From positions 1-61,867 of the forward strand of contig JBIIGF010000001.1 of the NCBI GenBank assembly GCA_044236665.1: a stretch of DNA of 61,867 nucleotides. The letters run 5' to 3'. Each line of letters opens with the position of its first letter. Position 1 is the stretch's first letter. The notes under the pieces were generated by a model that was given only the letters and a program-made list of their open reading frames with translations, had not been told where the DNA came from and made no database searches. The translations under genes and the position numbers were made by a program. Origin of the DNA: Aestuariivirga sp. Its GTDB lineage: Bacteria > Pseudomonadota > Alphaproteobacteria > Rhizobiales > Aestuariivirgaceae. Shown in pieces: positions 20,866 through 56,887 of this stretch.

Positions 20866-23807
20866 TGGACAAGGACAAGGCGATCCGGGCGGCAAAGCTT
20901 ACCCTCGGCGGCATGCTTGAGAAGCGCCGGGCCAAGACCGCTGTTGAGCGGGCTGAGGGCCAGATCGCCCCGTCTAAGTACCTTCCGGGCGTCCCGCGTC
21001 AGGTGCATGCCAACGGCGGCTATGTCCCAGCCGCAGCGCTGCCGGTGGGCCGCCTTGCGGTCGCCGGTGCCCTGCCGGTGCAGCGCCAGCCGGGCCTCCT
21101 TGACGCCCTCGGCAGCCTCGCCAGCATCGGCAAGTCCGCCATCGGCATCGCTGATCTGGTGTCGCCCGAGAAGGAAGAAGCGCCCAAGCCCCACGCTGGG
21201 CGCGCTGAGGCTGAAGGTGGCATGTCCCCTGAGGCCGTGTCCGCCTACAACGCCCTGCTGGAAGCCTATGGCAAGCCGCTGACCGTTGTCTCCGACTATC
21301 GCACGCCGAGCGAAAACGCCGCCGCGAAGGGTGCCAAAGGCAGCCAGCACATGCATGGCAACGCCTACGACATCGACACGTCGCATCTGTCACATGACGA
21401 GCGTCTGGCCCTCGCAGACGCAGCATGGGACGCAGGGTTTCGGGGCTTCGGCTTCTACGACAACAACATGCACTTCGACGTCGGCGGCGAGCGCGCATGG
21501 GGCCCGTCCCACAGCCGCGACAGCATCCCCGACTGGGCGCTGCCGTGGGCGCAGCAGCGGTATGGGTATGCCGAAGGCGGCGAAGTCACCGATCTGGGTC
21601 AGGTGCGCGAGCAAAAGCAGCTGCAGACGTTCCACACCGGCATGATGGACGACATCCACACCCGGATGACCCACGCCATGGAGGCGCACCAGAAGGCGGT
21701 CGACGCCGGTGTGTTCGACGGCTACGAGGTCGGCGATACCCTGCAGGGCAGCGCGCACCCCATGCGTATCACCGGACGATACATGCAGGCGTGGAAGCCC
21801 ACCACCATGGCCCTGCGCAGCTTTGAGCGGATGGGCACCGACCCAACGATCATCGAGCACGAGGGCAAACAGTACATCCCGATGCTTCGGTATCAGACCG
21901 GCAAAGAGGGTGTAGACGGGTTCCAAGAGGGAACCGCGTACCTCGACGGCGTCAGGGCCGCTGGCTACCAGAAGATGGGTGGTCTGCGGGCAGTGAAGGC
22001 TCGTGGTGGCGCTGTGGAGTTCATGCGGGGCAACCACCCGCTGGTGCCTGACGAGCTGTATCACGGTAGCGCACCGAAGGTGGCCACCAAGGGCTGGACA
22101 ACCGAGGTTGACGAAGAGCAGACCCAAAAGAACATCGAGGCGCAGGACTTCCGCGAGTTCCGTCCGTCGGAGCATGGTAACTACGGCCCCGGCATCTACC
22201 TGACCGACAAACCTGAGGTTGCCAGCGATTTCGCGCAAGGTATTCGCGCTGACCAAAAAGAACCTCGCCCGCATGGGCAGGTCATGAAGCTGCATGCCAG
22301 CATCAAGCAGCCGTTTCATGATGACGTACTGCGAAATCCGGCGTGGCGGGATTACATCAAGAGCGCCCTGACCCAATACAGCATCTCGCATGGTGAGGAT
22401 CGCAATGCGCGGGACGCCATCCTGAAGGCGCTGGACAACGGCACCGCAACCGTGCGCGATCTGTTTCTGCGCGACACGCCGCAAGGCACTTTGGTCAACC
22501 AGCATGGCCAGCACGACATCCACGACACCATTCGCAATTCCGGTTTCGATGGGATCATTGCGCACCGGCCCGACGGATCGAAAGAATATGTCGCGTTCAA
22601 GCCCGAGCAGGTGAAGAGCGCGATCTCGGCCCGAAAGTTTGACCCCACCAGCCCGGACATGACGTATGCTGACGGCGGCGCTGTCCCGCAGAAGACCGTG
22701 AAGGCCTACAAGCTGTTCCGCACCAAGGGTGACGGCAAGCTGTACCCGCTGTTCGTCAACGCCGACAAGCCCGTGCCGATGGGCGAGTGGCTTGAGGCCG
22801 AAGAGGGCCCGCAGGGCAAGGCGCAGGGCAGGGTGAAGTCCAAGATCGGCGATCTCGCATACCGACCCGGCTGGCATGCTGGCGATCTGCCCATTGCAAC
22901 CCACATCGGCGGCAAGTCCGACCCGAGCCTGAAGAAGCCCGATTACCGGCCCGACAACCACGTCTGGGCCGAGGTCGAGATGGCAGCCGACAAAGACTGG
23001 CAGTCGGTGGCCAACAGCCGTGGCAAGGGTGTGAAGGCCCACATCACCGACCAAGTACCTCTGGGTGGGTTCTATCGGTACAAGACCAACCCGAACATGA
23101 CCGGGAACTGGCTGATCGGCGGCAACATGAAGGTCAATCGTGTCCTGCCGGACGAAGAGGTCAAGGCCATCAACGACGCCGCTGGAACAGCCGACCTGCC
23201 GCGACTGCCGCGTGGCGCGTTCGCCGCTGGTGGTGCCGCCATGTTCGAGGGCATCCACGAAGACCTGCAGGACGAGCAGGGAAACCCTCTGGAACTCTGG
23301 CACGGCACACCCAGTGAGCCGTTCAGCGAGTTCAAGGACGAGAAGCTGGGATCGACCCGCGACTATGGGTTCTATGGGCGTGGGCATTACCTGACGCCGG
23401 ATCGTGAGAACGCCGAGGAGTACACGACAAACGAGTATGAGAAGCCCGGCGCAGTTATGGGCCCGCTCCACGCAGCCTTAAAGAACCCCTACGTCTGGGA
23501 TGCATCTGAGCAGGGCGCGCACCGCACACTGCGCGACCTGCAGTCCATGGGCATCATGAAGGGTCAAGACAGGCTCGAGCCATGGGACAACCTGCAGTCA
23601 CACCATATCCGCCCATTTATGGCTGAGATGCAAAAACGTGGCCATGATGGTGTTGTGGTTCGTACGAACGACTATCATGAGGGCAAGCCGCACCGCGTCT
23701 CCGAGATCGTCGTTTTCAAGCCCAGCGCGATCAAGCACAAAGACGCTGCGGTCTTCGACCCGAACGACCCAAACATCTATCGAGCCAATGGCGGAGCGAT
23801 CAAATGA
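20865..23807 (+). CDS. Polyvalent protein: M15-like peptidase, unknown module, ART-PolyVal-like domain, unknown module, second ART-PolyVal-like domain
   Basis: 'SDYRT..N...GAKGSQHMHGNAYD...HFD' (M15); two 'xHG[ST]...G[IH]YLT...G[FH]DG[IV]...E[YI]VxFKP' domains; modules separated by xAxGGx[VAI]. Confidence 0.75.
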   Translation: MDKDKAIRAAKLTLGGMLEKRRAKTAVERAEGQIAPSKYLPGVPRQVHANGGYVPAAALPVGRLAVAGALPVQRQPGLLDALGSLASIGKSAIGIADLVSPEKEEAPKPHAGRAEAEGGMSPEAVSAYNALLEAYGKPLTVVSDYRTPSENAAAKGAKGSQHMHGNAYDIDTSHLSHDERLALADAAWDAGFRGFGFYDNNMHFDVGGERAWGPSHSRDSIPDWALPWAQQRYGYAEGGEVTDLGQVREQKQLQTFHTGMMDDIHTRMTHAMEAHQKAVDAGVFDGYEVGDTLQGSAHPMRITGRYMQAWKPTTMALRSFERMGTDPTIIEHEGKQYIPMLRYQTGKEGVDGFQEGTAYLDGVRAAGYQKMGGLRAVKARGGAVEFMRGNHPLVPDELYHGSAPKVATKGWTTEVDEEQTQKNIEAQDFREFRPSEHGNYGPGIYLTDKPEVASDFAQGIRADQKEPRPHGQVMKLHASIKQPFHDDVLRNPAWRDYIKSALTQYSISHGEDRNARDAILKALDNGTATVRDLFLRDTPQGTLVNQHGQHDIHDTIRNSGFDGIIAHRPDGSKEYVAFKPEQVKSAISARKFDPTSPDMTYADGGAVPQKTVKAYKLFRTKGDGKLYPLFVNADKPVPMGEWLEAEEGPQGKAQGRVKSKIGDLAYRPGWHAGDLPIATHIGGKSDPSLKKPDYRPDNHVWAEVEMAADKDWQSVANSRGKGVKAHITDQVPLGGFYRYKTNPNMTGNWLIGGNMKVNRVLPDEEVKAINDAAGTADLPRLPRGAFAAGGAAMFEGIHEDLQDEQGNPLELWHGTPSEPFSEFKDEKLGSTRDYGFYGRGHYLTPDRENAEEYTTNEYEKPGAVMGPLHAALKNPYVWDASEQGAHRTLRDLQSMGIMKGQDRLEPWDNLQSHHIRPFMAEMQKRGHDGVVVRTNDYHEGKPHRVSEIVVFKPSAIKHKDAAVFDPNDPNIYRANGGAIK

Positions 23808-25471
23808 ACAAGCACGGCCTCTATTCCAAAGCCGCTGAGATCATCCGCTCCCTGCCGCAGGAGAGGGGCACGGTCGATCAGTACATCGCCGCAGCCAAGG
23901 CCCGTGGCGCGAAGCCGTCCGAACTGGAGCATGCCGGACGCCCCGAGGGTGACAAGATCACCCGCGAGGCGCTGGCCAAGCACTTTGAAGACGCCATCCC
24001 GAACCTTGGCGTCTCCCAGTACGGCGAGAACCCCCGCTACACGACCAACGAGGAAAACAAGCGGTTCCGTGACATTCCAGCCGGAGCAGAACTGTCTCCG
24101 CAGGAGAAGCTTGAGTACAACCGCCACATTCAGCGGAGCACGAGCAGACCCGAAGCTGAAACCTCACAATATGAAGGCGACGAAGACTATTTTGACACAG
24201 CCGACACGCAATATGGGGCCTACACAATCCCCGGCGGGAAGGACTATCGCGAACGCCTGATCCGGCTGGAAAGACCCAAAGGCTCCAATGAGCCGAGCTT
24301 TCGTTCATCCCACTGGTCCGATCATCCGAACGTGCTGGCCCACATCCGTATGTCCGACCGTATGGTTGGCGAGGATCGCGAAACTGTGCGGCCCATCGCT
24401 CAAAAGCTGGCAGATCATTTTAAGGTTGGGATCAGAGACCTCGGATCGTACGCCGCAGATCAGGGCGTCAAAGACGGCGTGGTTTCTCCGAAAGAGGCGG
24501 CCTCGTTTGCGCGGGTCATGAACTTCCCGTTCAGCAAGTACCACTCGGCTCCGGGTATCGGAAAACGCCTGTTACACGTCGAGGAGCTGCAGTCCGACTG
24601 GGGCCAAGATGGGCGCGATCAGGGGTTCAATACTGGAGAGGCGACAAAGGCCTATCAAGACCACACCCAAGGTGTAAAAGACCGTTTCCGCCAAAAGCTG
24701 TCGTGGATGGGGGACGATGCCGCCATTGAGAAAAGGATGGCGGAGACCCCTGTCAGCGAAATGGCCGCCCACACCGGCGATCTGGACCGGCATAGGGAGC
24801 TTGGCAAGGCCGCCGCCGACGAGCGTGGCAAGGCACCAACCGCCCCTTACGTCCAGAACACCCAGCACTGGACCGATCTTGCGCTGAAGAACGTCCTGCG
24901 CGAGGCCGCACTGGGCAACTATGACGGCGTGGTCTTTACCCCCGGACAGGCGCAGGCCGACCGCTACGGGCTGGAGAAGCAGCTTGATAAACTGCAGTAT
25001 GTGCCAAGCCAAAAAGAGCTTCGCGGCTTCAAGGATGGCACTTCGGTCGTGCACAAGGTGGGTATTGCACCAGAAGACCTACCGGGCCTGATTGGCAAGG
25101 ACGCAACTGGCAAGATGCTTCACCCCGACAACACGTTCACAGCCTCGGGCGAGCACACCTCAGTTAATGCAGGCGATCAGTACCACATGCTTCAGGGCGA
25201 CGACCTGAAAATGGGCGGCGAGGGCATGAAGGGTTATTACGACAACATCGTGCCGAAGAGCGTGATGACCTTGGCCAAACAGCACGACCCGGCGGCCAAG
25301 CCCGGCGAACCAATCACGCTCAAAAGCGATGATGGCGACTATCAGGGCTTCCACCTGCCGATGACTGACACCCTGAAGAACAGCGTCCTCGACAAGGGCT
25401 TCCCAGCCTTCAAGCGGGGCGGTTCGGTCGACGCAGCCCTCTCCCTGACCAGACGCTTCACCAAGCGGTGA
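23804..25471 (+). CDS. Large polyvalent-protein-type domain, probable internal virion protein
   Basis: 'PGGKDYRE', 'SHW..PNVLAHIR..DR', 'LHVEELQSDW', 'LALKNVLREAA..YDGV'; C-terminal FKRGGSV. Confidence 0.65.
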   Translation: MNKHGLYSKAAEIIRSLPQERGTVDQYIAAAKARGAKPSELEHAGRPEGDKITREALAKHFEDAIPNLGVSQYGENPRYTTNEENKRFRDIPAGAELSPQEKLEYNRHIQRSTSRPEAETSQYEGDEDYFDTADTQYGAYTIPGGKDYRERLIRLERPKGSNEPSFRSSHWSDHPNVLAHIRMSDRMVGEDRETVRPIAQKLADHFKVGIRDLGSYAADQGVKDGVVSPKEAASFARVMNFPFSKYHSAPGIGKRLLHVEELQSDWGQDGRDQGFNTGEATKAYQDHTQGVKDRFRQKLSWMGDDAAIEKRMAETPVSEMAAHTGDLDRHRELGKAAADERGKAPTAPYVQNTQHWTDLALKNVLREAALGNYDGVVFTPGQAQADRYGLEKQLDKLQYVPSQKELRGFKDGTSVVHKVGIAPEDLPGLIGKDATGKMLHPDNTFTASGEHTSVNAGDQYHMLQGDDLKMGGEGMKGYYDNIVPKSVMTLAKQHDPAAKPGEPITLKSDDGDYQGFHLPMTDTLKNSVLDKGFPAFKRGGSVDAALSLTRRFTKR

Positions 25472-25511
25472 TGATCTGATATGCTCCCCGGCAACGTACA
25501 GGGGGCCATCT

Positions 25512-28286
25512 ATGTCTGATGCCGTAAAGCGCGCACTCGATCTTGTCTCCGGGTATCAAGACCCGGAGCACCCCAAGATGAAGGACTGGAACTGGAAGCC
25601 CCTGCGCGACGTGCAGGAGAAGCTGGGCGGCCTCCCCGAAATCCCGAGCCACGTCGAGCGCTTTGGTGCCTTCATGGATGAGACGGCGCAGCGGGCGCTC
25701 AAAGGCGGCCTGACCCCGCGCGACCTCATCAAGGCCTATGCAATCACCCGTTCGTCGATCCAGCGCCGCGCCCAGACCGCAGACAAGGTCCGCGCCGCCG
25801 GTCTGGACCTCCCACCGGGCATGACGGGCATGATCCGCCCCGAGGGTGCCATGGGCGAGTGGTTGCACAGCCCCATGGGGCAGCGCTATCTCGACCAAGC
25901 AGAGCGCGGGAAGGTCGACGAAGAGGCTGTCGCCAATGCCCAGCAGGTCATGAAGCCGTTTGGCCTGAACGCGGAGCTGGATGCCTTGCCTTGGGCCGTC
26001 CAAAACCTCGGCCCGCGCCACAAAGAGGTCTCCGATCTGGTCGCTCGGGCCCTCACCGGCCAGTCTTCGCCCGAGGAATGGCGCAATTTCTCCAAGGATA
26101 TGCGTGGAATTGGCACGGCGAAGGCTGGTTTTGTCGCTTCCATGCTTGGTCGAGGCGATCAGCCGACCTTGGACGCCCGTCAGGTCATCCTGCAGACCGG
26201 TCAGCCGACGTCCGAGGCCAAAAAACCCATGGCGAAGGCCGGATATGCGGCTGTTGACCGCCTCGCAGCCCGTCAGGCGGCCTTAAATCCCAAAATGGAC
26301 CCCGGTTTAGAGCCTTTTCGGCAGCATTTGACCCACCACGCCATCTGGGACAAGGCCGGGAACGAGGAAACCACTCACGATGACGTCATGCGGGCCATGC
26401 GGGGCGCAAAAGACGGCGGTCGGATCAAGTATGACCGTAGCAAACACATCGAAAGTATCCGAAATCACCCTCTGGGCGCAGCATTGTTGCGCGTTGCGGG
26501 TATCGACCCCAAGCACAGCGACGAGCAGGTGCAGGCGATCCTGCAAAGGATCGAAGCCCGCAACAAAATGGTCGTCAACCCCAATGAAATCTGGAAGATC
26601 AACGACCCAATCGAGAAAGCGCGTCAGATCGCACTGTTGCAGAAGTACGATACCGATGTTTCTCAGAACAAGCCGACGACCGGCGGGTACTACAACATCA
26701 AGCAGGCCATGGCTCCAAGGGATGTGACGTCAACCGTCGGCGACATTCCGGGCGTGACGCCGAAGCCGATCAACAAGCTGTCTTGGGAGGACACACTGGC
26801 CCCCAGAGCCGGTGGTACGCTGATTGGCCTCGGCGGGGACCGCTCCAGACTGGGCCGGATGACGCACATCAACGGCAAGGAGCTGAAGTGGCCGGTCGAC
26901 CTTCACGCCGGTGTCGATTACATGCGCGAACCCAATAAGGGTCAGGTGTGGGCGAACGCCAAGGCCCACGCCAAGGGCATTGAGAAGATGATTGCGACCG
27001 CCGCCGAGAAGGGGCCGATCCTTGGGGCGTTCCAGCCTATGGGGCCCCAGTCCGTGGACAGCTCGCACAACATGGCGGACGCGCTGATGGCCCAGATCGA
27101 CAGCGATCAGATTAGCCCCGCCGACGCCAAAGAATTTGATGATGCACTGCGCGCAGGCTTGCATTCCCCCAACAAGAAAGAGCGCGAGGCGCATGCCCGT
27201 CAGATGGAGAACTGGCCCGGCATCCTGAACGCCAAGGAGGCCAGCGATTTCATGCGGCCTGAAACTGGCTTCCCCGGCACTGGCCGGGCGGCGCTCGCAA
27301 AATTCATGGACAAGAGCTATTGGCGTGACCGTGGCTTCCCGCATGTGGGTCAGACGCGCGCCGCCATCACTGAGCCTGAGCTTCTGGACGCTCGCGGCAA
27401 CATGGTTGGGCACAGAACTGTCGAGCTTGACCCTGAAGAAATGATCCGCAACGTACGAAACAGCGGCTTCATCCACTCGACGTACACCGAGCCGACCGGC
27501 GGCAGATATGTCTCCGACGTCCCACTTCTGCCGCGCCCGGACGTGTTCAGCGAACACGAGACGGCGATGCTGGCAAAGAACATCAGCGGCGGCCACACCG
27601 TCCACCCGTACGCCCCGACAAACCTTGGCCGTGCGACGTACCGCAAGATGACCGAGGAGCAAAAGCCTTGGGGAACGATCAACCAAGAAATGATCGACCG
27701 GGCGGGGATCGCAGAAGAGCGCATGAAACGGTATGGCTACAACACCGGCGGCACGGTGATGCCCGATCCGACCGAGGCCCAGAAGAAGGCGGGCAACTAC
27801 CTCAAGGGGCACATTAGCTTCCAAGGCCTGCCGATCACCCTCGAGAGCATGAAGGGTCAGACGCGGTCAGGCGTAGACCCAAATGGACAGAAGTGGTCAG
27901 TCAAGCTCCCGTACAACTACGGCTACATCAAGCGCACCGAGGGTGCGGATGGTGACCACGTTGACGTCTGCATTGGCCCGGACAGCGAGAGCGACCACGT
28001 CTTCATCATCGACCAGCACGATCTGCGCACCGGCGACTTTGATGAGCACAAGGTCATGCTGGGGTATCGGACCCGCGAGGACGCCACAAAGGCGTACCGT
28101 GACGGCTTTTCCGACGGCAAGGGGGCAGATCGGCAGCGCGCCGTGGTCCGCATGTCGATGAAGGAATTCAAGCACTGGCTGAAGTCGTGCGACACGAAAA
28201 AGCCTGTTCGGGGTCAGGGGCACATCGACCGTGCAATGTCTCTCACTTCGCGCTATACTGCACGGCACGACCGGGACGCCGGATAA
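25512..28286 (+). CDS. Polyvalent protein: HhH-like N-terminal domain, unknown middle domain, C-terminal inorganic pyrophosphatase (InPase) domain
   Basis: '[14 protein letters not shown]...G.TRSG....KWSV...[17 protein letters not shown]...FDEHKVMLG'; N-terminal '[10 protein letters not shown]...PTLD'. Confidence 0.75.
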
Positions 28287-28302
28287 CCTCGAGGAGAACG
28301 CA

Positions 28303-29523
28303 ATGGACGCCAAAACTCTGCGCGCAGCGATGAAGGACAAGGCCAAACGCCTTGCGACCTCCTCGCCTGCCAAGGTCGACAGCTCGACCTTTACCCCTGC
28401 CGAACCGCTTAATACCGAAGTCAAGACGGGCATGCGCCCGATCTCGCGCCGCGCATTCAAGACCGGCGGCAAGGTTGAGGGCATGGAATGCGCGCCCCGC
28501 GCTGACCGCAAGCCCCGCATGAACGGCGGCAAGATCGGTCTGGCCAACACCGACCAGAAGAGCGCCAACGAGGAGCGCGACGGCAAGAAGCACGTCGGCG
28601 CACTCAAGACCGGCGGTCGCGTTGCCAAGATGGGTGGCGGCCTGATGGACCCCAAGAAGGGTGAGGGCATGATGAAGTCCTCTTTGGACCATTACGAGCC
28701 CCTGCCAAAGCCCGATGGCAACCCCTTCAAACCCGGCAAAGACCAAATCGACAAGGGCAACGCGCTCATGCAAGAAGAGCAGCGTCGTCAGGGCGACATG
28801 ACCCGCCGCAAGCATGGTGGCAAGACAATGAAGGCCTCTGGTGGGTCGATTTCGTCCGCCGGTCCTGACACTGGTGGCCGTGAAGCCAAGAAGAAGGGCG
28901 GCATGGTCGAGGGTTCGGCCAAGGACGTGGCTGAAGACAAGAAGCTGGCCAAGAAGCACGGCATGTCCATGAAGGAGTGGGAAGCCTCGCCTGAGGACAA
29001 GAAGCATGACGCGCCGAAAAAGAAGTCCGGCGGCGGTCTCTACGCCAACATCCACGCCAAGCGCGAGCGGATCGAGGAAGGCTCGAAGGAGAAGATGCGC
29101 AAGCCGGGCTCCAAGGGCGCTCCGACTGCTGAGGCGTTCAAAGCCTCTGAGCGCACCGCTCGCAAGTCTGGTGGCAAGGTTGGCAAGACCAACATCAACA
29201 TCATCATCTCGCCGCGCGGTGAAGCCAAGGAAGGCATGATGCCTCCCCAGCCGATGCCGATGCCGCGTCCTCCGATGCCGATGCCTGCCGCTGCAGCCGC
29301 TCCTCCGATGCCGATGCCCGCCCCCGGCGGTATGCCTCCGGGTCTCGGCGCAGCTCTGGCCGGTGCCGCTGGCGCTATGCCTCCGGGTGGCGCAATGGCT
29401 GGCCGTCCGCCGATGCCGATGGCTCGCAAGGATGGCGGCAAGGTGTACCCGAAGATGAAGTACGGCGCTGGCTCCGGCGAGGGCCGCCTTGAGAAAGTTG
29501 AGAAGTACGGCAAAAACGCCTGA
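28303..29523 (+). CDS. Lys/Gly/Met/Pro-rich disordered protein with ~10 xxxGGx motifs (candidate internal head polyprotein)
   Basis: GAGGAG RBS before ATG 28303; strongly biased codons; followed by a terminator hairpin. Confidence 0.75.
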
Positions 29524-29803: not shown

Positions 29804-30193
29804 ATGCCGCACATGATGATGAGCCACGAGGAAGACCCCAAAAACAAGCTCCTCGATGAGCTGGGCGACCTCTCCGAGATTGAACTGTTCCACAACCAAG
29901 TCCTTCTGGCGGTCTATATCCGCCCGCAGAAGACAAAGTCCGGCCTCTACCTGACGGACAAGCACACCGATGAGGACCGCTACCAGTCGAAGGTCGGCCT
30001 CCTCGTGAAGACCGGCCCACAGGCGTTCGAGCAGGACGGCAACTGGTTCTCCGGCCTCGATTTCAAAGACCACGATTGGCTGGTTTTCCGCCCGTCTGAC
30101 GGCTGGTCGATCACCGTCAACGGTGTTCTCTGCCGCATCTTCGACGACATCAACATCAGGGGCCGAATTCCGCACCCCGACGCAGTCTGGTAA
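29804..30193 (+). CDS. GroES-like (Cpn10) co-chaperonin
   Basis: 'NQVLLAV..PQKTKSGLYL...VGLLVKTGPQAF...DWLVF...RIFDDINIRG'. Confidence 0.8.
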   Translation: MPHMMMSHEEDPKNKLLDELGDLSEIELFHNQVLLAVYIRPQKTKSGLYLTDKHTDEDRYQSKVGLLVKTGPQAFEQDGNWFSGLDFKDHDWLVFRPSDGWSITVNGVLCRIFDDINIRGRIPHPDAVW

Positions 30194-33889: not shown

Positions 33890-34549
33890 ATGCCCTACAT
33901 CAAACACCTTCCCGTAGAAACCTTGCGCGAGTTTCTTCGGTATGACCCTGAGACAGGTTCGATCACTTGGATCAAGCGCGCAGCCAAAAACACTATAGTG
34001 GGATCACCAGCGGGCTCCGTGAAAGCGGGCAGCAGATCAAACTCCGACTATCGGTACATTCGGCTCCACAAAATTGACTTCACCGCCGCAAGAGCCGCTT
34101 GGGCCCTAAACCACGGGGAGTGGCCAACGGGAAAACTTTTCTTTGTGGATGGCGACCCATCAAACCTCAAAATTTCAAACCTCAGGGTCGCAAACTCCCT
34201 TGAGGACAAGGCTCGCAACACCGCTGAATACATGAAGCGTCATCGTGAAAAATTTCCTGATTTTTGGAAGGATAACCACCTTCAGCGGACCTTCGGTATC
34301 AGCTTGACCGACTATATCCAAATGGTGGTGGAGCGCGGCAATAAGTGCGACATCTGCGGGCGACCCGAGACCCAGACGCGTGGTGGAAAGGTCAAGGCCT
34401 TGGCCGTGGACCACAACCACACCACTGGGGCGGTTCGGGGGCTTCTTTGCTCTGATTGCAATACCGGTTTGGGCAAATTCAAGGACAGCCGGTCGGTTCT
34501 CAAAGCCGCGATTGCCTACTTGGATAGTCATGTGGTACAGTCTGAATGA
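33890..34549 (+). CDS. Free-standing homing endonuclease (degenerate HNH-type N-terminus plus endonuclease VII domain)
   Basis: 'LRYDPETG..TW'; 'CDICGRPE...LAVDHNHTTGAVRGLLCSDCNTGLG'; lower GC than its flanks. Confidence 0.85.
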   Translation: MPYIKHLPVETLREFLRYDPETGSITWIKRAAKNTIVGSPAGSVKAGSRSNSDYRYIRLHKIDFTAARAAWALNHGEWPTGKLFFVDGDPSNLKISNLRVANSLEDKARNTAEYMKRHREKFPDFWKDNHLQRTFGISLTDYIQMVVERGNKCDICGRPETQTRGGKVKALAVDHNHTTGAVRGLLCSDCNTGLGKFKDSRSVLKAAIAYLDSHVVQSE

Positions 34550-35304: not shown

Positions 35305-35568
35305 ATGCCATCTGCCGCATACCTTACAGCTGATGCCACCGTATCCGCGCATCGCGCTGTCGCAATCACCCCGAGCAATACGGTCGTGTTTGAGCAGCCG
35401 ACCCGTGGCATCTACGTCGGCAGCGCTGGCAACATCACCGCCGAACTGCCTGACACCGGGGCATCGATCCTCTTCGTCGGCCTTCTGGCGGGCGTCGTTT
35501 ACCCGTTTCAGGTGACGCGCGTCTACGCCACCGGAACCACCGCAGCCAGCTTGGTGGCGCTGTACTGA
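35305..35568 (+). CDS. Small beta-rich virion protein (spike-base-like)
   Basis: 'AITPS....TRGIYVGSAGNI...GVVYPFQVTRVYATGTTA'. Confidence 0.7.
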   Translation: MPSAAYLTADATVSAHRAVAITPSNTVVFEQPTRGIYVGSAGNITAELPDTGASILFVGLLAGVVYPFQVTRVYATGTTAASLVALY

Positions 35569-49587: not shown

Positions 49588-50169
49588 ATGCCGCTGAAGC
49601 CCGGAAGCTCGCAGGAGACTATCTCCAAAAACATCTCCGAGATGGTCCGCTCTGGTCATCCGCAGGATCAGGCTGTTGCGGCGGCCTTGAGCACGGCTCG
49701 CGAGGGCATGAAGCGCGGTGGCGGGATCAAAACGCACAAGGGCCCAATCCACTCCGCAGTGGCTGGACGAACCGATCACCTGCCAATGCACGTTGCCTCT
49801 GGATCGTACGTTATCCCGGCTGACATCATCTCGGCCATGGGTGAGGGCAACTCGATGGCCGGGTTCAAGGTGGCAAAGAGCATCTTTTCCATGGCAGGGC
49901 CGTACGACAAGAGCGTGGGTGCCATGCCATATGGCGGCGGTGAGATGCCCTATGACCAGCCTGCACCCAAGCGCGCTGCCGGTGGTGAGGTTGACGCTGT
50001 GCCAATCGTTGCGGCTGGCGGAGAGTACGTTATCCCGCCCGAAGACGTCGAGCGCATCGGCAACGGCGACTTGGATCATGGGCACAAAGTCCTTGATGCC
50101 TTTGTGAAAAAAATGCGAAAAAAGACCATCAGAACCCTGCAATCACTGCCGGGACCCAAAAAGGACTAA
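49588..50169 (+). CDS. Protein with two GG...G[SE]YVIP units resembling tape-measure C-terminal motifs
   Basis: AAGGA RBS then ATG 49588; 'KRGGG...[18 protein letters not shown]' and '[23 protein letters not shown]'. Confidence 0.7.
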
Positions 50170-50173
50170 ACTG

Positions 50174-50668
50174 ATGGATGACGTCGCGGTTCGCACTGGC
50201 ACAATTGAAGACTTTAACGCGATGATGGACTGGGCATTTTCTGCCACTCAGGAAAATGCATTTGTTTATCCCGACGTCGAAAAACTTGCCGGTGTTATTT
50301 GGGGCGCATTGTCGGTCAAGACGGGGATTTGCGGGATCATAGGGCCGGTTGGCGGCAAGGTTGAAGGGGCAGTCCTTCTCAGCATGGGCGAACTGTGGTA
50401 CAGCAAAGAAATAATTCTTGAGGAAAAAGTGATCTACGTTGACCCTGAATACCGCTCGGCGAAGGGTGGTAGGGCAAGAAAGCTCGCTGAATTCGCGAAG
50501 ATGACTGCAGACAAGCTCGGTGTTCCGTTGGCGATTGGTGTTCTTTCAAGTTCTCGGACGGAAGCAAAAATTCGGCTTTATGAGCGTGTATTTGGCTCAC
50601 CAGCTGGTGTATACTTCCTCTACGGTGCAAAAACTGGCCTCAATGAAGGGGCTGAAGGGGGCTCCTAA
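50174..50668 (+). CDS. GNAT-fold acetyltransferase-like protein
   Basis: 'VRTGTIEDF', 'IYVDPEYRSAKGGRARKL', 'IRLYER..G'. Confidence 0.65.
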   Translation: MDDVAVRTGTIEDFNAMMDWAFSATQENAFVYPDVEKLAGVIWGALSVKTGICGIIGPVGGKVEGAVLLSMGELWYSKEIILEEKVIYVDPEYRSAKGGRARKLAEFAKMTADKLGVPLAIGVLSSSRTEAKIRLYERVFGSPAGVYFLYGAKTGLNEGAEGGS

Positions 50669-53600
50669 TGGGCGGCAAAACTTCAACAACGACACAGCAG
50701 GTTACTGTCCCGCCGGAGGTTCTTGCCCGGTACAACGCGGTCAATGCGCGTGCTGAAAGTGTTGCAAACAGGCCATTCCAGATTTACTCCACGGACCCAT
50801 CCAAGTTCGTTGCGCAGCTGAACCAGCAGCAGCAGATGGGTATTGGGAATGTGAACGCCGCCGCAGGGGCTTACCAGCCGTACCTATCGGGTGCCACGGG
50901 AGCAACCATGGCCGGTATGGCGTCGGCCAACCCCGCTGATCTTGAGATCAGCAAATACATGAACCCGTTCCAGCAGGACGTCATCAACGCTACGATGGCT
51001 CGCATGCGTCAGGAACAGGAGCAGGCCCAGTCTGGCGCTCTCGGCACCGCCATCTCCTCTGGGGCCTTCGGCGGCGACCGGGCCGGTATTGCGGCTGCAA
51101 ACCTTGCCCAACAGCAGGGCATGGCGACCGGCGCGACCTTGGCTGGCCTGAACGCGCAGAACTATCAGCAGGCCCTGCAGACGGCCCAGCAACAGCAGGG
51201 CCTCGGTCTCGGCGCAGAACAAGCAAACCTTGCCCGCCTCCTCTCCGGTGGCCAGCAACTGGCAGGCCTTGGGCAGATGGCTCAGGGTCTTGGGCTTCAG
51301 GGTGCAGAGGCGCAGATCAACGCGGGCACCCTCGGTCAGCAGACCGAGCAGGCTGGCCTCAGCGCGCTTTACAATCAGTTCCAGCAGGAGCAGGCCTATC
51401 CGTTCCAAGTGGCCCAGTTCCTTGCGAACATCGCGGCCAGTACCGGGGCGTTGTCTGGATCGACCACGACCACCACACAGCCCGGCTCGTTCTGGTCGGA
51501 TCGCCGCCTGAAGCACGACATCAAGCGCATCGGCAAGACTGACGATGGCCTGCCGATCTACAGCTTCAAGTACAAGGGTGATGACAGCGAGCAGACCCAC
51601 GTCGGTTTCATGGCCGACGAGGTCGAGAAGGTTAATCCTGACGCGGTGAACACCGAACCGTCCGGCTACAAGTCGGTCGACTATGACCGAGCAACCAAGG
51701 CCGGTGGCGGTGGTGTTGCTGGTCCGTATGGCTCAAACGTTGGTTCTCAGCCGGGCGTCGGTGGCTATGTCCCGCAGGCCTACCTACCTGTCGGTGAGTT
51801 GATGATCGCTGACAGCTCTGGTCTCTCAAATGCGCGCATGTCTATGGCACAGCAACTTGAGGCCGCAGCCAAAATAGGCGAGAGCATCAAAAGCCTAGAC
51901 GAGGACTGGCAGTGGGCCAAGGATCGTTGGGGCAACCAAAAACGCGAGGGGAACCTTGCTGGTGCCGAGGAGGCGCGCGACGTAAGATATGCCTCTGGTG
52001 GCGTCGTCGGCTATGCTTCTGGTGGCCCAGCCTACCTTGAGGGCGGCCTCAAGCCCGCCCAGAACCCCGTTGAAAAGGAGGGCTACCTCTCCGACACGGT
52101 GAAGTCCCAAGAGGAAGGCAAGAAGAACCAGATCATGCAGCCGGGCTCCGCGCCGGGCCAGCAGGCAAGTGGCGCGTCCCAGCTTGGAAGCCTTTTGGGC
52201 GGCGCTGGTGCAGCAATGTCTGGTTTTGCAGCCATCGCTCCGCTCCTCGGCATCTCCGACCGCCGCATGAAGCACGACATCCGCAGGATCGGGAAAACCG
52301 ACGACGGGATGCCGATCTACAAGTTCAAGTACAAGGGTGACGACCGCGAACAGACGCACATCGGCTTCATGGCTGATGAGGTCGAGCGCAAGCATCCCGA
52401 CGCCGTGATGACCGGCTCTGACGGCATGAAGCGCGTTGACTACGGTCAGGCGGACAAGTTTTATCAGGGTGGTGTCGTTCGCCACGGGTATGCTACCGAT
52501 GGTACGGTTGAGGACGAAAGAACCGCTGGTGAGAGGGTTTCGGAGTTCACCTATCCCGCTCGCGATCTCCTGACGCGCCGACTGCCCTTGGGTGCGCTCG
52601 CCCTTGCTAACCGTATCACGGCGGGTGCCCAGAACCTAGCTGGGGTGGGCCTTGGTGCGGCTGGCGCGCCGGAAGCTGCCGATTACGCCTTCGGCGCAGG
52701 CTCTAACACGATGGAACGCGCCAGAGAGTTAAGCCGCAGAGCCGACGAACCCGCCCAGCCTTACCCCCAGCCGAGAGACCTGTCGGCGGCTGACATGCGC
52801 GCCTTGGAGCAGACCCCCGAAGAGGCGGCGGCTCTGGAAGCGCGCAGGAACATGACGATGGAGCCATCTCGGTCTGAGGGTGTTATACCCTCAGAATATG
52901 GACGCCTCTTGATGAACCCGGCGGGGTCTCTCCCTGTAGGGGTTGCCGACCCCATGCGCTTCGCCGCCGGTGATGCAAGAATGGGTGCCGAGGCATCCCC
53001 CATGCGTTTTGCCGCCGGTGATGCAAGAATGGGTGCGGAAGCCAGCCCCATGCGCTTCGCATCTGGTGATAGCCGCATGGGCCCCGGACTTGCACCCGCA
53101 TCGTCTATTCGTCCTCAGGCGCGCCCTGAAGGCCTTGGCGCTGCCTCCACCTCCATCTCTACCGCATCCCAGCCCGACGTGGCCGCTACGCAGCCCCCAG
53201 CAGCACCACAGCAGTTTGGCTTCACTGGTGTCGCCGGTGCCGGGAAAGGGTACACCGACGTCATCCTGCCCGACGGAACCGTGGAGCGTCGTGAGGGTGC
53301 GCGGAACTGGCGCAACAACAACCCCGGCAATATCGAGTTTGGTGATTTTGCCAAGGCCAATGGTGCTGTTGGTTCCGATGGGCGTTTTGCCGTGTTCCCC
53401 ACCTACGAGGCGGGCCGGGCGGCCAAGGAAGCCCTTCTGTTCTCGACCGACGGTTATGCCGGAAAGACCATTGCTGGCGCTCTTGAGCGGTACGCTCCGC
53501 GCGCAGACAACAACAATACTGACGCATACATCGCCACGGTGGCCAGCGCCCTTGGCGTCGACCCGAATACTCCGCTTGCGGAATTGAGCCCCGCTCAGCG

Positions 53601-55044
53601 GGACGCAATGCTGACGGCGATGGAGCGTGTTGAGGGCGGTGGTCCGGGCGGTGATGGCCAGTTTGTTTCCTACTCCACAACTCCCGGCGGCCTTGGCGGT
53701 GCAAGCTTGGCTCCTCCGGCAGATCAGAGAGGCCTTGGCGCTGGCATCCTGACCTCTGACAAGCCGTATGAGGATCGCACCACCCTCGGAAAGATGTTCT
53801 ACAACGAGGACGGGACGGTCAACCGCAACGCCTTGCTCTCTCTCGCATCCGGCGTTGGGGCTATGCTTTCGTCGCCCAGCCAGTTCTTCCTGCCGTCTGT
53901 AGGCCTCGGCCTGCAGGGCGCTGCCAGCACCTACGCTGGCCTTGAGAAGCAAGCGGCTGACATCGCGCTCACCAGAGAAGAAGCGCGCCGCACCAATATC
54001 GAGGCTGATAGAGGTCGCATCTACGAAGGCCAGAACGGCACGATGTTTATCAATCTAGGTGGCGGAATGCCCCCGATTGAACTCTGGCGCTATCTGGAGA
54101 ACCCCGCCGCCTATTCAACCGGCGACAGACAGCTTGATGCGCAAATCCTTCGCCAAGCACGGGAAATGTCGCAACGCGAGACGCCTGCCAGCGGTGTCTT
54201 CTCGGCCCCCGAGGTCCAGACCCTGCTTGACCGCGAAACTGCAAACTCGGAACGCAATCCGAATTCGGCCCGCGCCCAAAGCGATGCTATTGAAAGCGCA
54301 ACGAACGCTTCAGCGGCAGTGGCGCGTTCCGCAATTCCGTCAATCTTGACGCAGGCAGATGCTGTTGCCGCATTGACCAGTCCGGATGAGGAGGTGCGCT
54401 CCGGCGCATTGGGTCCGCTGAAGCAAACCGCCGCAAACTACTTGAACGACCTGTCTCAGACAATCAGCCAGATGACAGGTGTTCAGCTGCCGACCATCAC
54501 TGACCCCAACGGTGGTGACGCCGCCGCAAACGCGCAAATCATCCTCAAAGAGGCTGTAGCTTCTGGTATGCTGAACGCCAACGGCATCCAAGAGCTTCAG
54601 ACCATCATGGGTGCACAGCCGAACATGGCGCTCTCTGCCGAGGCAAACTCCGCGCTGATGGCAGGTCTGTTGGTATCGGGTCGCACCGAAATGCGCCGCG
54701 CTGACTTCATGCGGGACTACAAGCAACAACCGGGCAACACATACCGCACGGTGATTGACGCTGGTCAGGCTTTCCAAGAGGCATACGGCAATCAGATTTT
54801 GGCCGAAAAGGCTGTTCTGAAGGAACTGATTCACTACGGAAATCAACCCATGCCTCCCGAGTGGGCCACCATCCTTGGCGACTACAGGACGCCCATGGAA
54901 TTCCTCATGACGCCCGGCATCTCGCCGGAAGACAAGAACGAGTTCATCATGAAACTTCTCCCGGCACTTGGGGTAAACGAGATGGTCATCTCGGGTCTTC
55001 AGGGTCCGGAAGGCGTTTACATCGGCAACTACTTCGGAGGCTGA
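50668..55044 (+). CDS. Large ejection / DNA-transfer protein with two internal S74 chaperone domains and a lysozyme-like domain
   Basis: Gln/Ala/Gly-rich N-terminus ('MGGKTSTTTQ', 'YMNPFQ', 'GAFGGDR'); two 'SDRR[LM]KHDI.RIG' domains; 'RNNNPGNI...FAVF.T.EAG...RYAP..DNNNTDAY'. Confidence 0.75.
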   Translation: MGGKTSTTTQQVTVPPEVLARYNAVNARAESVANRPFQIYSTDPSKFVAQLNQQQQMGIGNVNAAAGAYQPYLSGATGATMAGMASANPADLEISKYMNPFQQDVINATMARMRQEQEQAQSGALGTAISSGAFGGDRAGIAAANLAQQQGMATGATLAGLNAQNYQQALQTAQQQQGLGLGAEQANLARLLSGGQQLAGLGQMAQGLGLQGAEAQINAGTLGQQTEQAGLSALYNQFQQEQAYPFQVAQFLANIAASTGALSGSTTTTTQPGSFWSDRRLKHDIKRIGKTDDGLPIYSFKYKGDDSEQTHVGFMADEVEKVNPDAVNTEPSGYKSVDYDRATKAGGGGVAGPYGSNVGSQPGVGGYVPQAYLPVGELMIADSSGLSNARMSMAQQLEAAAKIGESIKSLDEDWQWAKDRWGNQKREGNLAGAEEARDVRYASGGVVGYASGGPAYLEGGLKPAQNPVEKEGYLSDTVKSQEEGKKNQIMQPGSAPGQQASGASQLGSLLGGAGAAMSGFAAIAPLLGISDRRMKHDIRRIGKTDDGMPIYKFKYKGDDREQTHIGFMADEVERKHPDAVMTGSDGMKRVDYGQADKFYQGGVVRHGYATDGTVEDERTAGERVSEFTYPARDLLTRRLPLGALALANRITAGAQNLAGVGLGAAGAPEAADYAFGAGSNTMERARELSRRADEPAQPYPQPRDLSAADMRALEQTPEEAAALEARRNMTMEPSRSEGVIPSEYGRLLMNPAGSLPVGVADPMRFAAGDARMGAEASPMRFAAGDARMGAEASPMRFASGDSRMGPGLAPASSIRPQARPEGLGAASTSISTASQPDVAATQPPAAPQQFGFTGVAGAGKGYTDVILPDGTVERREGARNWRNNNPGNIEFGDFAKANGAVGSDGRFAVFPTYEAGRAAKEALLFSTDGYAGKTIAGALERYAPRADNNNTDAYIATVASALGVDPNTPLAELSPAQRDAMLTAMERVEGGGPGGDGQFVSYSTTPGGLGGASLAPPADQRGLGAGILTSDKPYEDRTTLGKMFYNEDGTVNRNALLSLASGVGAMLSSPSQFFLPSVGLGLQGAASTYAGLEKQAADIALTREEARRTNIEADRGRIYEGQNGTMFINLGGGMPPIELWRYLENPAAYSTGDRQLDAQILRQAREMSQRETPASGVFSAPEVQTLLDRETANSERNPNSARAQSDAIESATNASAAVARSAIPSILTQADAVAALTSPDEEVRSGALGPLKQTAANYLNDLSQTISQMTGVQLPTITDPNGGDAAANAQIILKEAVASGMLNANGIQELQTIMGAQPNMALSAEANSALMAGLLVSGRTEMRRADFMRDYKQQPGNTYRTVIDAGQAFQEAYGNQILAEKAVLKELIHYGNQPMPPEWATILGDYRTPMEFLMTPGISPEDKNEFIMKLLPALGVNEMVISGLQGPEGVYIGNYFGG
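52951..53085 (+). repeat. In-frame 48-bp tandem repeat, ~3 copies (PMRFAAGDARMGAEAS)
   Basis: Visible directly in both DNA and protein. Confidence 0.9.
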
Positions 55045-55045
55045 C

Positions 55046-56887
55046 ATGGAAGACCTTACCAGTAGACTTCCCACACTTCAGCCTCCCGCCGGGCGCTCAC
55101 CTCAGGCTAGCATGTCGGAGCGGGTCAAAAGCCTCCCTGCTCTGACATTGCCACGTCAAGAGGAGCGACCAGAGCAAGCGCAGACGGTTACCCCCGGTGA
55201 CCGTCAACCCCCCGGCGGTGATAATCGCATGACCCCCGTCCCCGCCCCCGCCTCTGGGCGCATGTTCCAGATCAAGGAAGACCTCCCGCGAAGCGCGTAT
55301 GAAGACATGCCGTTTACGGAAGTTTTGCCTCGTGCGGCCTCCAACTTCTTTCCCAGCGCCGGGAACGTGGGTAAGGGTCTGTATGACGCCGTGGTGAATT
55401 ATGAGGACACGGCAGGAGCTCTAAACCAACTTGGCAAGGGCGTCATCTCAAAGGTTCGCGGCGCTCTGGGTGGTGAGCGCAACATGGAAGCCGAGGCGGT
55501 AGCTGACGCGCTGGGTTCTATGTATGCTGACCGCTATGGCAGCATGGCGGCCTTCAAAGAGACTTTGGCTGAAGACCCCGCCTCTATTGGCTTAGATGTG
55601 GCGTCTGTTGCCCCTGTGGTCGGACCAGCAGGTCGCGCTGCGGGCCTTGGGCCTGTGGCAACAGGCCTGCAGAGGGTTACCTCTCTTGGTGACCCGGTCA
55701 ACCTTGCTGCTCAGGGTGTAAAGCTTGCTTCCCGTGGTGTCACGGCCCCGGTGACCACGGTTGGCAGATACGTTCAGGGTGCAGCAAGCGGGGTCACGCC
55801 GAACGCCCTGAAGCTTGCCGAGCAGGCTGGCAAGAGTGCCGATCCTGCGGCACGAGCCGCGTTCAAGACATTTGCTATGGGCAAGGGCGACAACCGGGAA
55901 ATTGCAAGAACCGCCGTGGCGGCTCTGGATGAACGCCGCGCCGCCGAACAAGCTGCCTATGTGCGGGGCAAGCGGGAGCTGACCACTCAGGAACTGTCCC
56001 TGAATAGGGTGCAGGATACCGTCAATCAGGTTAGGTCCGAGATAAATAGGCTCGGCCTCTCAAGCCAATCCCCGAAGGTTGCCGTTCTTGAGGAAATGGC
56101 GAGGAAGGTTGACCAATACGTCAATCACCCCGACCCCACGGCCCGAACGGCTGTTCAGCTGGACGTTCTGAAGCGCGATCTGCGTGATATGATGGACACT
56201 CTGAAGCCGTCTGACAAGGGTGCTTTGTCATCCATACCCACGTCTGTGCGCGACACCATTGCAACTGTCGATCCGGGTTACGCTGCTATGATGGAGCGGT
56301 ATCAGTCGTGGCTGTCCGAGATGAAGGACATCCAATCGACTCTTGGTGCCAACGACCGTGTAGCAGAGACGACACGGATTGCACGGCTTTTGTCCACCCT
56401 GAAGAGCGACGACAAGACATCGCTCCTGAAGGAGTTGGCCGGGAAAACAGAAGCCGGGAAGTACCTTCCTTACATGATTGCCGGTGCCTCGGTTGAAAAG
56501 ATAGCGCCACCCTACCTGCAGGGTATGGGCCTGATGGGGGCTGGGTCTGTCCTTCTGGGTGGTCCACATGGTATGGCAATGGCGGCAGCTGGATCACCTC
56601 GTCTTGCTGGGTTTACCCAATATGGGGCAGGGCGTCTGCAGGGTGCGATCAACAGAATCCCAACACCCCCTTCTGCAGCAACCAACCTTCTGTCCCAGAT
56701 CGGGAATGAACGTATGGAGCGCAAGACCGGTGGCCGTGTGGGCATGCCGCACGACAAGGTGGCAGATCAGTTGGTTATGGCTGCAGAACGTGCTAAGAAG
56801 GGGATCAGCAAGGGGACCGAAAGCCTCCTCGATATGTCTGACAACCACATCGCACATGCTTTGGAAGTGGCGAACAGGAGCATCTGA
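55046..56887 (+). CDS. Second ejection / DNA-transfer protein
   Basis: Helical Ala/Gly-rich 613 aa after the large ejection protein; hydrophobic 'GAGSVLLGG..AAAGSPRLAG'; C-terminal RKTGGRV. Confidence 0.65.
   Translation: MEDLTSRLPTLQPPAGRSPQASMSERVKSLPALTLPRQEERPEQAQTVTPGDRQPPGGDNRMTPVPAPASGRMFQIKEDLPRSAYEDMPFTEVLPRAASNFFPSAGNVGKGLYDAVVNYEDTAGALNQLGKGVISKVRGALGGERNMEAEAVADALGSMYADRYGSMAAFKETLAEDPASIGLDVASVAPVVGPAGRAAGLGPVATGLQRVTSLGDPVNLAAQGVKLASRGVTAPVTTVGRYVQGAASGVTPNALKLAEQAGKSADPAARAAFKTFAMGKGDNREIARTAVAALDERRAAEQAAYVRGKRELTTQELSLNRVQDTVNQVRSEINRLGLSSQSPKVAVLEEMARKVDQYVNHPDPTARTAVQLDVLKRDLRDMMDTLKPSDKGALSSIPTSVRDTIATVDPGYAAMMERYQSWLSEMKDIQSTLGANDRVAETTRIARLLSTLKSDDKTSLLKELAGKTEAGKYLPYMIAGASVEKIAPPYLQGMGLMGAGSVLLGGPHGMAMAAAGSPRLAGFTQYGAGRLQGAINRIPTPPSAATNLLSQIGNERMERKTGGRVGMPHDKVADQLVMAAERAKKGISKGTESLLDMSDNHIAHALEVANRSI

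Follow-up and report, generated by a model that had tools for sequence, protein, structure and literature searches.

In phage maturation-protease systems of the T4 gp21-like type, a short motif is enriched in internal and head proteins, and the cognate protease is encoded by the phage itself. Peptidase S74 (ICA) domains cut themselves, and the accessible text of two papers establishes this for fibres, for MYRF and for Bdellovibrio fibres (PMC8326128, PMC10769870), with the self-cleavage of the Bdellovibrio fibre protein Bd3182 shown to depend on the Ser (accessible text of PMC10769870). For MyRF, the accessible part of PMC8326128 describes a four-heptad coiled coil that drives trimer formation, cleavage that takes place only in the trimer, and coiled-coil mutants in which the cut is blocked. 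The MYRF/MrfA domain is internal, as are those described here, and it likewise has a Ser/Lys dyad and two helper aromatics; unlike the phage cores, it occurs as a single copy, is an obligate trimer and belongs to a eukaryotic transcription factor.

Other systems that resemble parts of this locus are found among phage proteins. The siphophage tail tape-measure proteins T5 pb2 and lambda gpH have one cut and no S74, and share with our protein an xxGG near the cleaved region. T5 pb2 is cleaved after R1127 (accessible text of PMC10038345), and for lambda gpH the accessible text of PMC12617516 gives the cut site and the enzyme as not mapped. P22 gp7 is alike in its place after the gp14-like acetyltransferase and in its Gly-rich hydrophobic end with a Phe; it differs in that gp7, gp20 and gp16 come from separate genes and carry no S74. 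The N-terminus of gp7 is trimmed by a host protease, and gp7 is present in about 12 copies, not an obvious trimer.

In six cultured podophages (phiM5 gp27, phiGT1 gp17, Salmonella 7-11 gp20, AH02 gp11, Brucella Tb gp23 and the Mwe-JY13 protein), the first ejection protein has, as here, a short S74 core without coiled coil after a hydrophobic Gly-rich helix; unlike here, the copy is single and terminal, the later ejection proteins come from separate genes and there is no GG joint. The original prediction held that S74 domains normally occur on tail fibres or spikes, which proved too narrow, as cultured podophages commonly carry a terminal S74 on their first ejection protein. S74 outside fibres is thus not new, and GenBank notes already record the terminal form, the phiGT1 note naming the S74 match. 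PhiM5 gp27, labelled tailspike in GenBank, has been detected in virions (GenBank note), and so has phiGT1 gp17 (accessible part of PMC10386132 Table S3). We have seen no report of cleavage for these S74-terminated proteins, and the accessible text of PMC4819975 mentions no virion processing in phiRIO-1. In the openly accessible literature that we searched, no ejection protein is described as having an S74 that is internal or present twice, and no GG code is described.

Two short S74 cores inside an ejection protein

The 61.9-kb window, by which we mean the whole stretch of DNA analysed, is a podophage-type genome with terminase, SU10-like portal, major head protein, adaptor, tail tube and fibres (Pfam, PHROGs), and comes from an uncultured short-tailed phage. 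On the forward strand, which carries all features of the locus given below, an ORF at 50668-55044 encodes an ejection (internal virion) protein, likely a polyprotein, of 1458 aa and 153 kDa, assigned from PHROG matches, from gene order and from a relative annotated 'internal virion protein D'. Residues 1-345 match PHROG ejection and virion families (phrog_4287 'DNA ejection protein', E 3e-29; phrog_6121, E 1.5e-57), which bears out the predicted identity as an ejection protein. The gene before it (50174-50668) is GNAT-like, a kind that precedes the first ejection genes in podophages (phrog_1249, E 6e-6, and a weak Pfam match), and this order is parallel to that of P22 gene 14 and gene 7. A link to P22 gp7 is suggested by gene order and by the label 'IVPB/gene7' in the accessible part of PMC10386132 Table S3. 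Further upstream lies a conserved 193-aa protein with two GG motifs (49588-50169), and downstream the next probable ejection protein (55046-56887), whose function is suggested by its position and whose GG motif lies 54 residues before the C-terminus.

Three large probable cargo genes lie between portal and capsid (20865-28286): the first (ORF 20865) encodes an M15 peptidase together with an ADP-ribosyltransferase (ART-PolyVal), and the other two encode a family-less 555-aa protein and an inorganic pyrophosphatase protein. The 407-aa protein encoded at 28300-29523 is rich in Lys, contains 13 GG pairs, has a tail rich in Pro and Met, and has no family apart from a 44-residue PHROG match; a GroES-like co-chaperonin gene is found at 29804-30193. 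An HNH and endonuclease VII gene at 33890-34549, immediately 3' of the major head gene, is probably a homing endonuclease, and a gene-transfer-agent-type head-spike base gene at 35305-35568 (NF048002) hints at an alphaproteobacterial host.

The original prediction placed two S74 domains in the ejection protein, and both are there. The motif S-D-R-R-x-K starts in frame at 51496 (Ser277) and 52255 (Ser530), with the Ser and Lys intact, and each copy, scored alone, exceeds the PF13884 gathering cut-off of 22 bits (52.6 bits for copy 1, 42.1 bits for copy 2). They are the close duplicates that had been predicted, identical at 48 of 64 residues and at 141 of 192 bases, and no others were found in the window: a six-frame search of its 669 stop-to-stop frames with an S74-domain profile returned these two copies only, and Pfam, run on 36 window proteins, found none in the ORFs for fibres and spikes, in agreement with the claim that the fibre genes have no S74. 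In a structure search of 48,161 chains, the four solved ICA structures, MyRF 7DC3, GA-1 3GUD, endoNF 3GW6 and T5 4UW8, ranked 1, 2, 3 and 5, though with low Z values (3.8, 3.8, 3.5 and 2.5, respectively); the best match, 7DC3, has an rmsd of 3.3 over 63 residues. A profile comparison matched structure 6F45 (E 1.9e-6). A single-sequence search of the PDB gave weak fibre matches only, and with Foldseek no PDB chain came below E 0.001 (best E 0.78).

The motif was also compared over a set of 411 S74 domains in 249 proteins (P0001-P0249), of which 408 start with x-D-x-x-x-K and were scored. This pattern demands the Asp and the Lys, not the Ser, and the catalytic Ser is at the domain start in all 408, with the Arg in 402. 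In 373 of the 408 domains, the Ser is preceded by F, L, W, M, I, V or Y, and the MyRF helper aromatics Y615 and Y617 have Phe/Tyr as their aligned counterparts in both of our copies. These three features count for a model in which the cores cut themselves. The three domains left unscored are two truncated ones and a variant from outside the ejection-protein family. Four small proteins of the set (P0226, P0236, P0247 and P0172; 196-237 aa), which lie outside this phage family, consist mostly of two short S74 cores.

For description, the protein can be divided at its predicted cuts. Piece A (residues 1-276, 28.5 kDa; 50668-51495) is, by family profile, the Gln/Ala-rich body of a first ejection protein and ends in a Thr-rich linker and Phe-Trp. 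S74 core 1 (residues 277-344, 7.7 kDa; 51496-51699), with Ser277 and Lys282, is predicted to cut before Ser277 and is closed by the GG motif K344-A-G-G-G-G-V (51697-51717), where a second cut may fall after K344; the x-x-G-G is kept in zero-copy relatives. Piece B (residues 345-529, 18.6 kDa; 51700-52254) has extra GG motifs at Y441 and Y449. It ends in a Gly/Ala-rich hydrophobic helix (residues 509-529; 52192-52254), the most hydrophobic stretch of the protein (Kyte-Doolittle 1.64), which would become its C-terminus. S74 core 2 (residues 530-598, 8.1 kDa; 52255-52461), with Ser530 and Lys535, is recognised by Pfam, with a model and a weak fold match, and is cleanly missing in one-copy relatives; the GG motif that closes it, F598-Y-Q-G-G-V-V (52459-52479), may be cut after F598. 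Piece C (residues 599-1458, 90 kDa; 52462-55044) comprises a linker, a cell-wall-hydrolase-like domain and a helical C-terminal region. The two copies are thus internal, as predicted, with 860 aa downstream of copy 2. The endolysin-like domain of piece C (residues about 871-993; 53278-53646) matches phrog_873 (E 1.5e-26) and phrog_2276 (E 2.8e-20) and no Pfam family above cut-off, and relatives carry PF01464, PF18013 or PF05838. Three near-identical 14-residue repeats are present in the piece C linker (about 52950-53085), and relative P0095 has a similar array. Piece B also carries a 50-residue module (51748-51897), composed of GG-Y-V-P...L-P-V-G-x-L and a helix, with a profile match (E 1e-12) to the N-terminus of ORF 20865, where the shared 45-50 residues lie at about residues 50-95. 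This common module is possibly a loading or ejection signal.

With known S74 domains the copies share a PF13884 score above cut-off, the S-D-x-R-x-K motif and probably the core fold. They are unlike them in being internal, present twice per chain, about 68 residues long and followed by GG, in belonging to an ejection protein, and in having no coiled coil, no helix 1 and no upstream triple beta-helix. Copy 1 is preceded by the Thr-rich linker and copy 2 by the hydrophobic helix (mean Kyte-Doolittle in 146 two-copy proteins, -0.23 before copy 1 versus 1.33 before copy 2), with no trimeric beta-helix or fibre client. Aligned with a fibre-type S74, the cores show an 11-residue gap at helix 1; the GG comes about 8-14 residues after the last S74 strand, and the coiled coil (helix 4) and the helix-1 collar are absent. 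In the model of core 2 (mean pLDDT 68; 77-86 in the core), the last helix has 7 residues. As aligned and modelled, both copies have kept the catalytic core and lost the trimer scaffold, and the missing scaffold is the main argument against cleavage by these cores. It also divides the label 'auto-cleaving chaperone' given in the original prediction: the S74 domain stands, and the chaperone role is doubtful because the trimerising coiled coil is absent. A homotrimer prediction with three copies of core 2 and a 35-row alignment gave scores of 0.05 and 0.01, where the mark is 0.42, and is informative neither way.

A proposed order of processing

We lean slightly towards the explanation that this is a fused, likely head-packaged ejection polyprotein whose cores cut themselves at the Ser and are then trimmed at GG by a separate protease. 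The chain would be synthesised whole, with packaging in the head likely, and each core would cut before its own Ser by means of the Ser/Lys dyad, after which the other protease would trim the core from the downstream piece at the Gly-Gly signal. The products would be A (28 kDa), B (up to 19 kDa) and C (90 kDa) and two discarded cores of 8 kDa, with B ending in the hydrophobic helix and C bearing the wall hydrolase. Rather than folding trimers as a chaperone, the S74 would sit on a hydrophobic C-terminal helix until loading, as a removable cap or timer, and the resulting ends would be those that S74-free relatives get from a GG site or from a stop codon. Judged from sequence, the self-cut before Ser277 and Ser530 is probable, and for the cut one to three residues before GG the balance tips somewhat in favour. 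The original prediction expected self-cleavage to release three pieces, which is probably too few, as the GG looks like a second cut that frees the S74 cores.

Some results count against this explanation, namely the weak fold match (Z 3.8 at best), the lack of a coiled coil and the helix-1 gap. The same holds for the lack of an identified GG protease, for the roughly 12 copies of P22 gp7, for the absence of a piece A profile match to P22 gp7, for the T5 site being a single case, and for the fact that the GG pattern was derived from our own proteins.

The GG motif and candidate proteases

A GG closes each copy, as had been predicted, yet the motif is not specific to S74. The pattern [FYHRKM][AKQN]xGGx[VIAL], drawn from these same proteins, occurs 21 times in the 59 window ORFs, compared with 2.3 times expected in shuffles, and all occurrences are in 8 proteins: the portal, the probable cargo ORFs 20865, 23804 and 25512, and ORFs 28300, 49588, 50668 and 55046. 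The carriers fall in two regions of the window, 18544-29523 and 49588-56887. In the portal the motif is in the C-terminal tail, and ORF 20865 has six copies at domain borders; it is absent from the capsid, tube, adaptor and fibres of the window. Relatives of at most 80% identity show the same enrichment, with 125 occurrences versus 17 expected in the family of the ejection ORF, 33 versus 4.8 for ORF 55046, 40 versus 3.1 for ORF 49588 and 5 versus 0.9 for ORF 56887, and none was found in relatives of the tail tube (4.3 expected), the adaptor or the GNAT-like protein. A looser pattern is concentrated near the joints in the ejection-ORF family, where its density is 4-8 per 1000 residues; elsewhere it stays under 0.1. 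In 387 of 403 domains, a GG lies within 25 residues of the last S74 strand, versus 25% at random positions. The cut site of T5 pb2 reads R/AEGG in the T5 genome sequence (cleavage at the slash), which is one example and comes from a siphophage tape measure. The enrichment, the adjacency to S74 and the T5 site count for a cut at GG. Lambda gpH has F733-ATGG and Y778-ATGG within its cleaved C-terminal region.

The S74 dyad was the sole peptide-cleaving element of the late region that the original prediction recognised as plausibly acting on virion proteins; if GG is cut, it would not be the only one, since the GG in seven S74-free proteins would need another protease. Among the window proteins scanned, Pfam, PHROGs and NCBIfam recognised no cognate GG protease. 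The M15 peptidase of ORF 20865 we take, by its family, to be a cell-wall type enzyme. The protein of ORF 49588 is a candidate that is neither supported nor excluded. The stretches G-R-T-D-H-L and A-A-G-G-E are invariant in this highly conserved protein, which has 3246 homologues; its model has a pLDDT of 56, and the best PDB matches (Z 4.1) are to unrelated chains, with no informative fold match, other matches to uncharacterised viral proteins and Atlas neighbours without names. By tblastn it overlaps with Acinetobacter 'head maturation protease' genes over its first 33-37 residues only, and we discounted this overlap as evidence. For the crAss001 cargo proteins, matched in the Atlas with a score of 0.77, the accessible literature reports no cleavage or motif.

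The GG could also be an uncut loading or docking tag, with cores that cut themselves at the Ser and, as in the original prediction, three pieces as the result, two of which would start with an S74 core. We regard this as rather unlikely. Under such a scheme one-copy and zero-copy relatives would either escape cleavage or be cut in another way, although their joints agree with ours at the residue level (see below), and T5 pb2 is cleaved at just such a sequence, even though GG is limited to the portal tail and to proteins that are probably internal, as a loading tag would be, no protease gene was identified, and piece B has a module in common with cargo ORF 20865.

Copy number and joints in relatives

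The original prediction had proposed a check of copy number in relatives, and two-, one- and zero-copy forms were found. A family search with residues 1-620 gave 2347 matches among 7995 scored candidates, and the best 120 of these comprise 63 two-copy proteins (one cut at the N-terminus) and 57 one-copy proteins by a strict pattern. A search of 50%-identity representatives with copy 2 added 129 proteins, 99 of them two-copy; this set is biased to S74 carriers and takes in a handful of small proteins that are unrelated. Metagenomes commonly contain the internal two-copy form. In all 61 two-copy relatives compared, the nearest neighbour of copy 2 was the copy 2 of another phage and never its own copy 1, which rules out a recent duplication or gene conversion between the copies; by this comparison, the duplication is old. 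A tree with 211 rows, built on the 200 residues that precede copy 1, contains 23 changes in copy number, at least 9-11 of which are forced by well-supported branches, and in this set, biased to S74 carriers, the two-copy form is found across the tree in 133 rows. Copy 1 is seldom missing (4 proteins). Repeated copy loss fits these data, and recombination between phages could have contributed.

The stretch after copy 1 could be aligned for 117 of the 120 close relatives, 60 two-copy and 57 one-copy by the strict pattern. One of the latter (P0110) has two copies, leaving 56 true one-copy relatives. In all 56, the hydrophobic helix passes straight into x-x-G-G, with 2-6 residues in place of the core. 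Another 118 relatives are short, many of them cut at contig ends; P0403, P0409, P0419 and P0452 among them are without copy 1 and have GG at that joint, and P0409 and P0452 are zero-copy proteins with a GG motif at both joints. The ends of the cassette thus match the GG joint exactly.

Cultured podophages have related ends. In P22 gp7, LUZ24 gp53 and BcepIL02 gp66, a hydrophobic stretch rich in Gly is followed by a Phe and the stop, and phiEco32 gp24 ends in a similar stretch but has no terminal Phe. The six S74-terminated proteins have a short S74 at that point and then the stop. A stop, S74 and a stop, GG, or S74 and GG occupy one shared boundary, which is most simply read as the point where the chain ends in all four. 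The profile of piece A matches phiM5 gp27 (E 3e-18) and, weakly, 7-11 gp20 (1.6e-4) and phiEco32 gp24 (4e-3); it gave no significant match to P22 gp7, Tb gp23 or phiGT1 gp17. The one-copy joints, the zero-copy P0452 and P0409 and the two kinds of end in cultured phages count for the model of removal by two cuts. BcepIL02 gp59, whose S74 has the full coiled coil, is an ordinary fibre, and so the two S74 genes listed for JC1 are probably fibres too.

These comparisons also bear on whether the cores are active. They could be inert, serving as folded spacers or binding modules, with any processing left to the GG protease alone. The absence of the trimer-forming helices that MyRF requires for cleavage would agree with this, as would the repeated copy loss; the Ser is nevertheless invariant while many neighbouring columns vary, and cultured phages place a short core where S74-free relatives stop, which is explained most easily by removal, so that we consider inert cores improbable. 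Less probable still are passengers of the intein or Hint kind that cut themselves, are GG-trimmed and bring no benefit, kept since an uncut core would block ejection: core absence is clean and repeated in close relatives and zero-copy forms are known, but two copies are widespread (in the S74-biased set), copy 1 is rarely missing, the copies hold position-specific identity, and the cleavage steps would be those of our preferred explanation with a different purpose only.

Self-cutting cores trimmed at GG thus remain the explanation we prefer. It may be extended to a code with two cutters in a widespread group of uncultured podophages, in which a minimal S74 core that works without its trimer helices acts together with a virion-wide x-x-Gly-Gly protease system that also cuts the T5 and lambda tape measures and the other head cargo, and we put this wider form forward tentatively, as a possibility with the odds against it. 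The GG motif predicts that lambda gpH is cut after F733 or Y778. If the cores cut, S74 chemistry would work without the coiled coil that is thought to be essential, and a domain of about 68 residues could be put to use as a small tag that removes itself. It would then be shown that podophage ejection proteins are processed from a polyprotein, and, if this is true, many 'tail fibre' or 'tailspike' labels that are based on S74 only would be wrong, for example that of phiM5 gp27.
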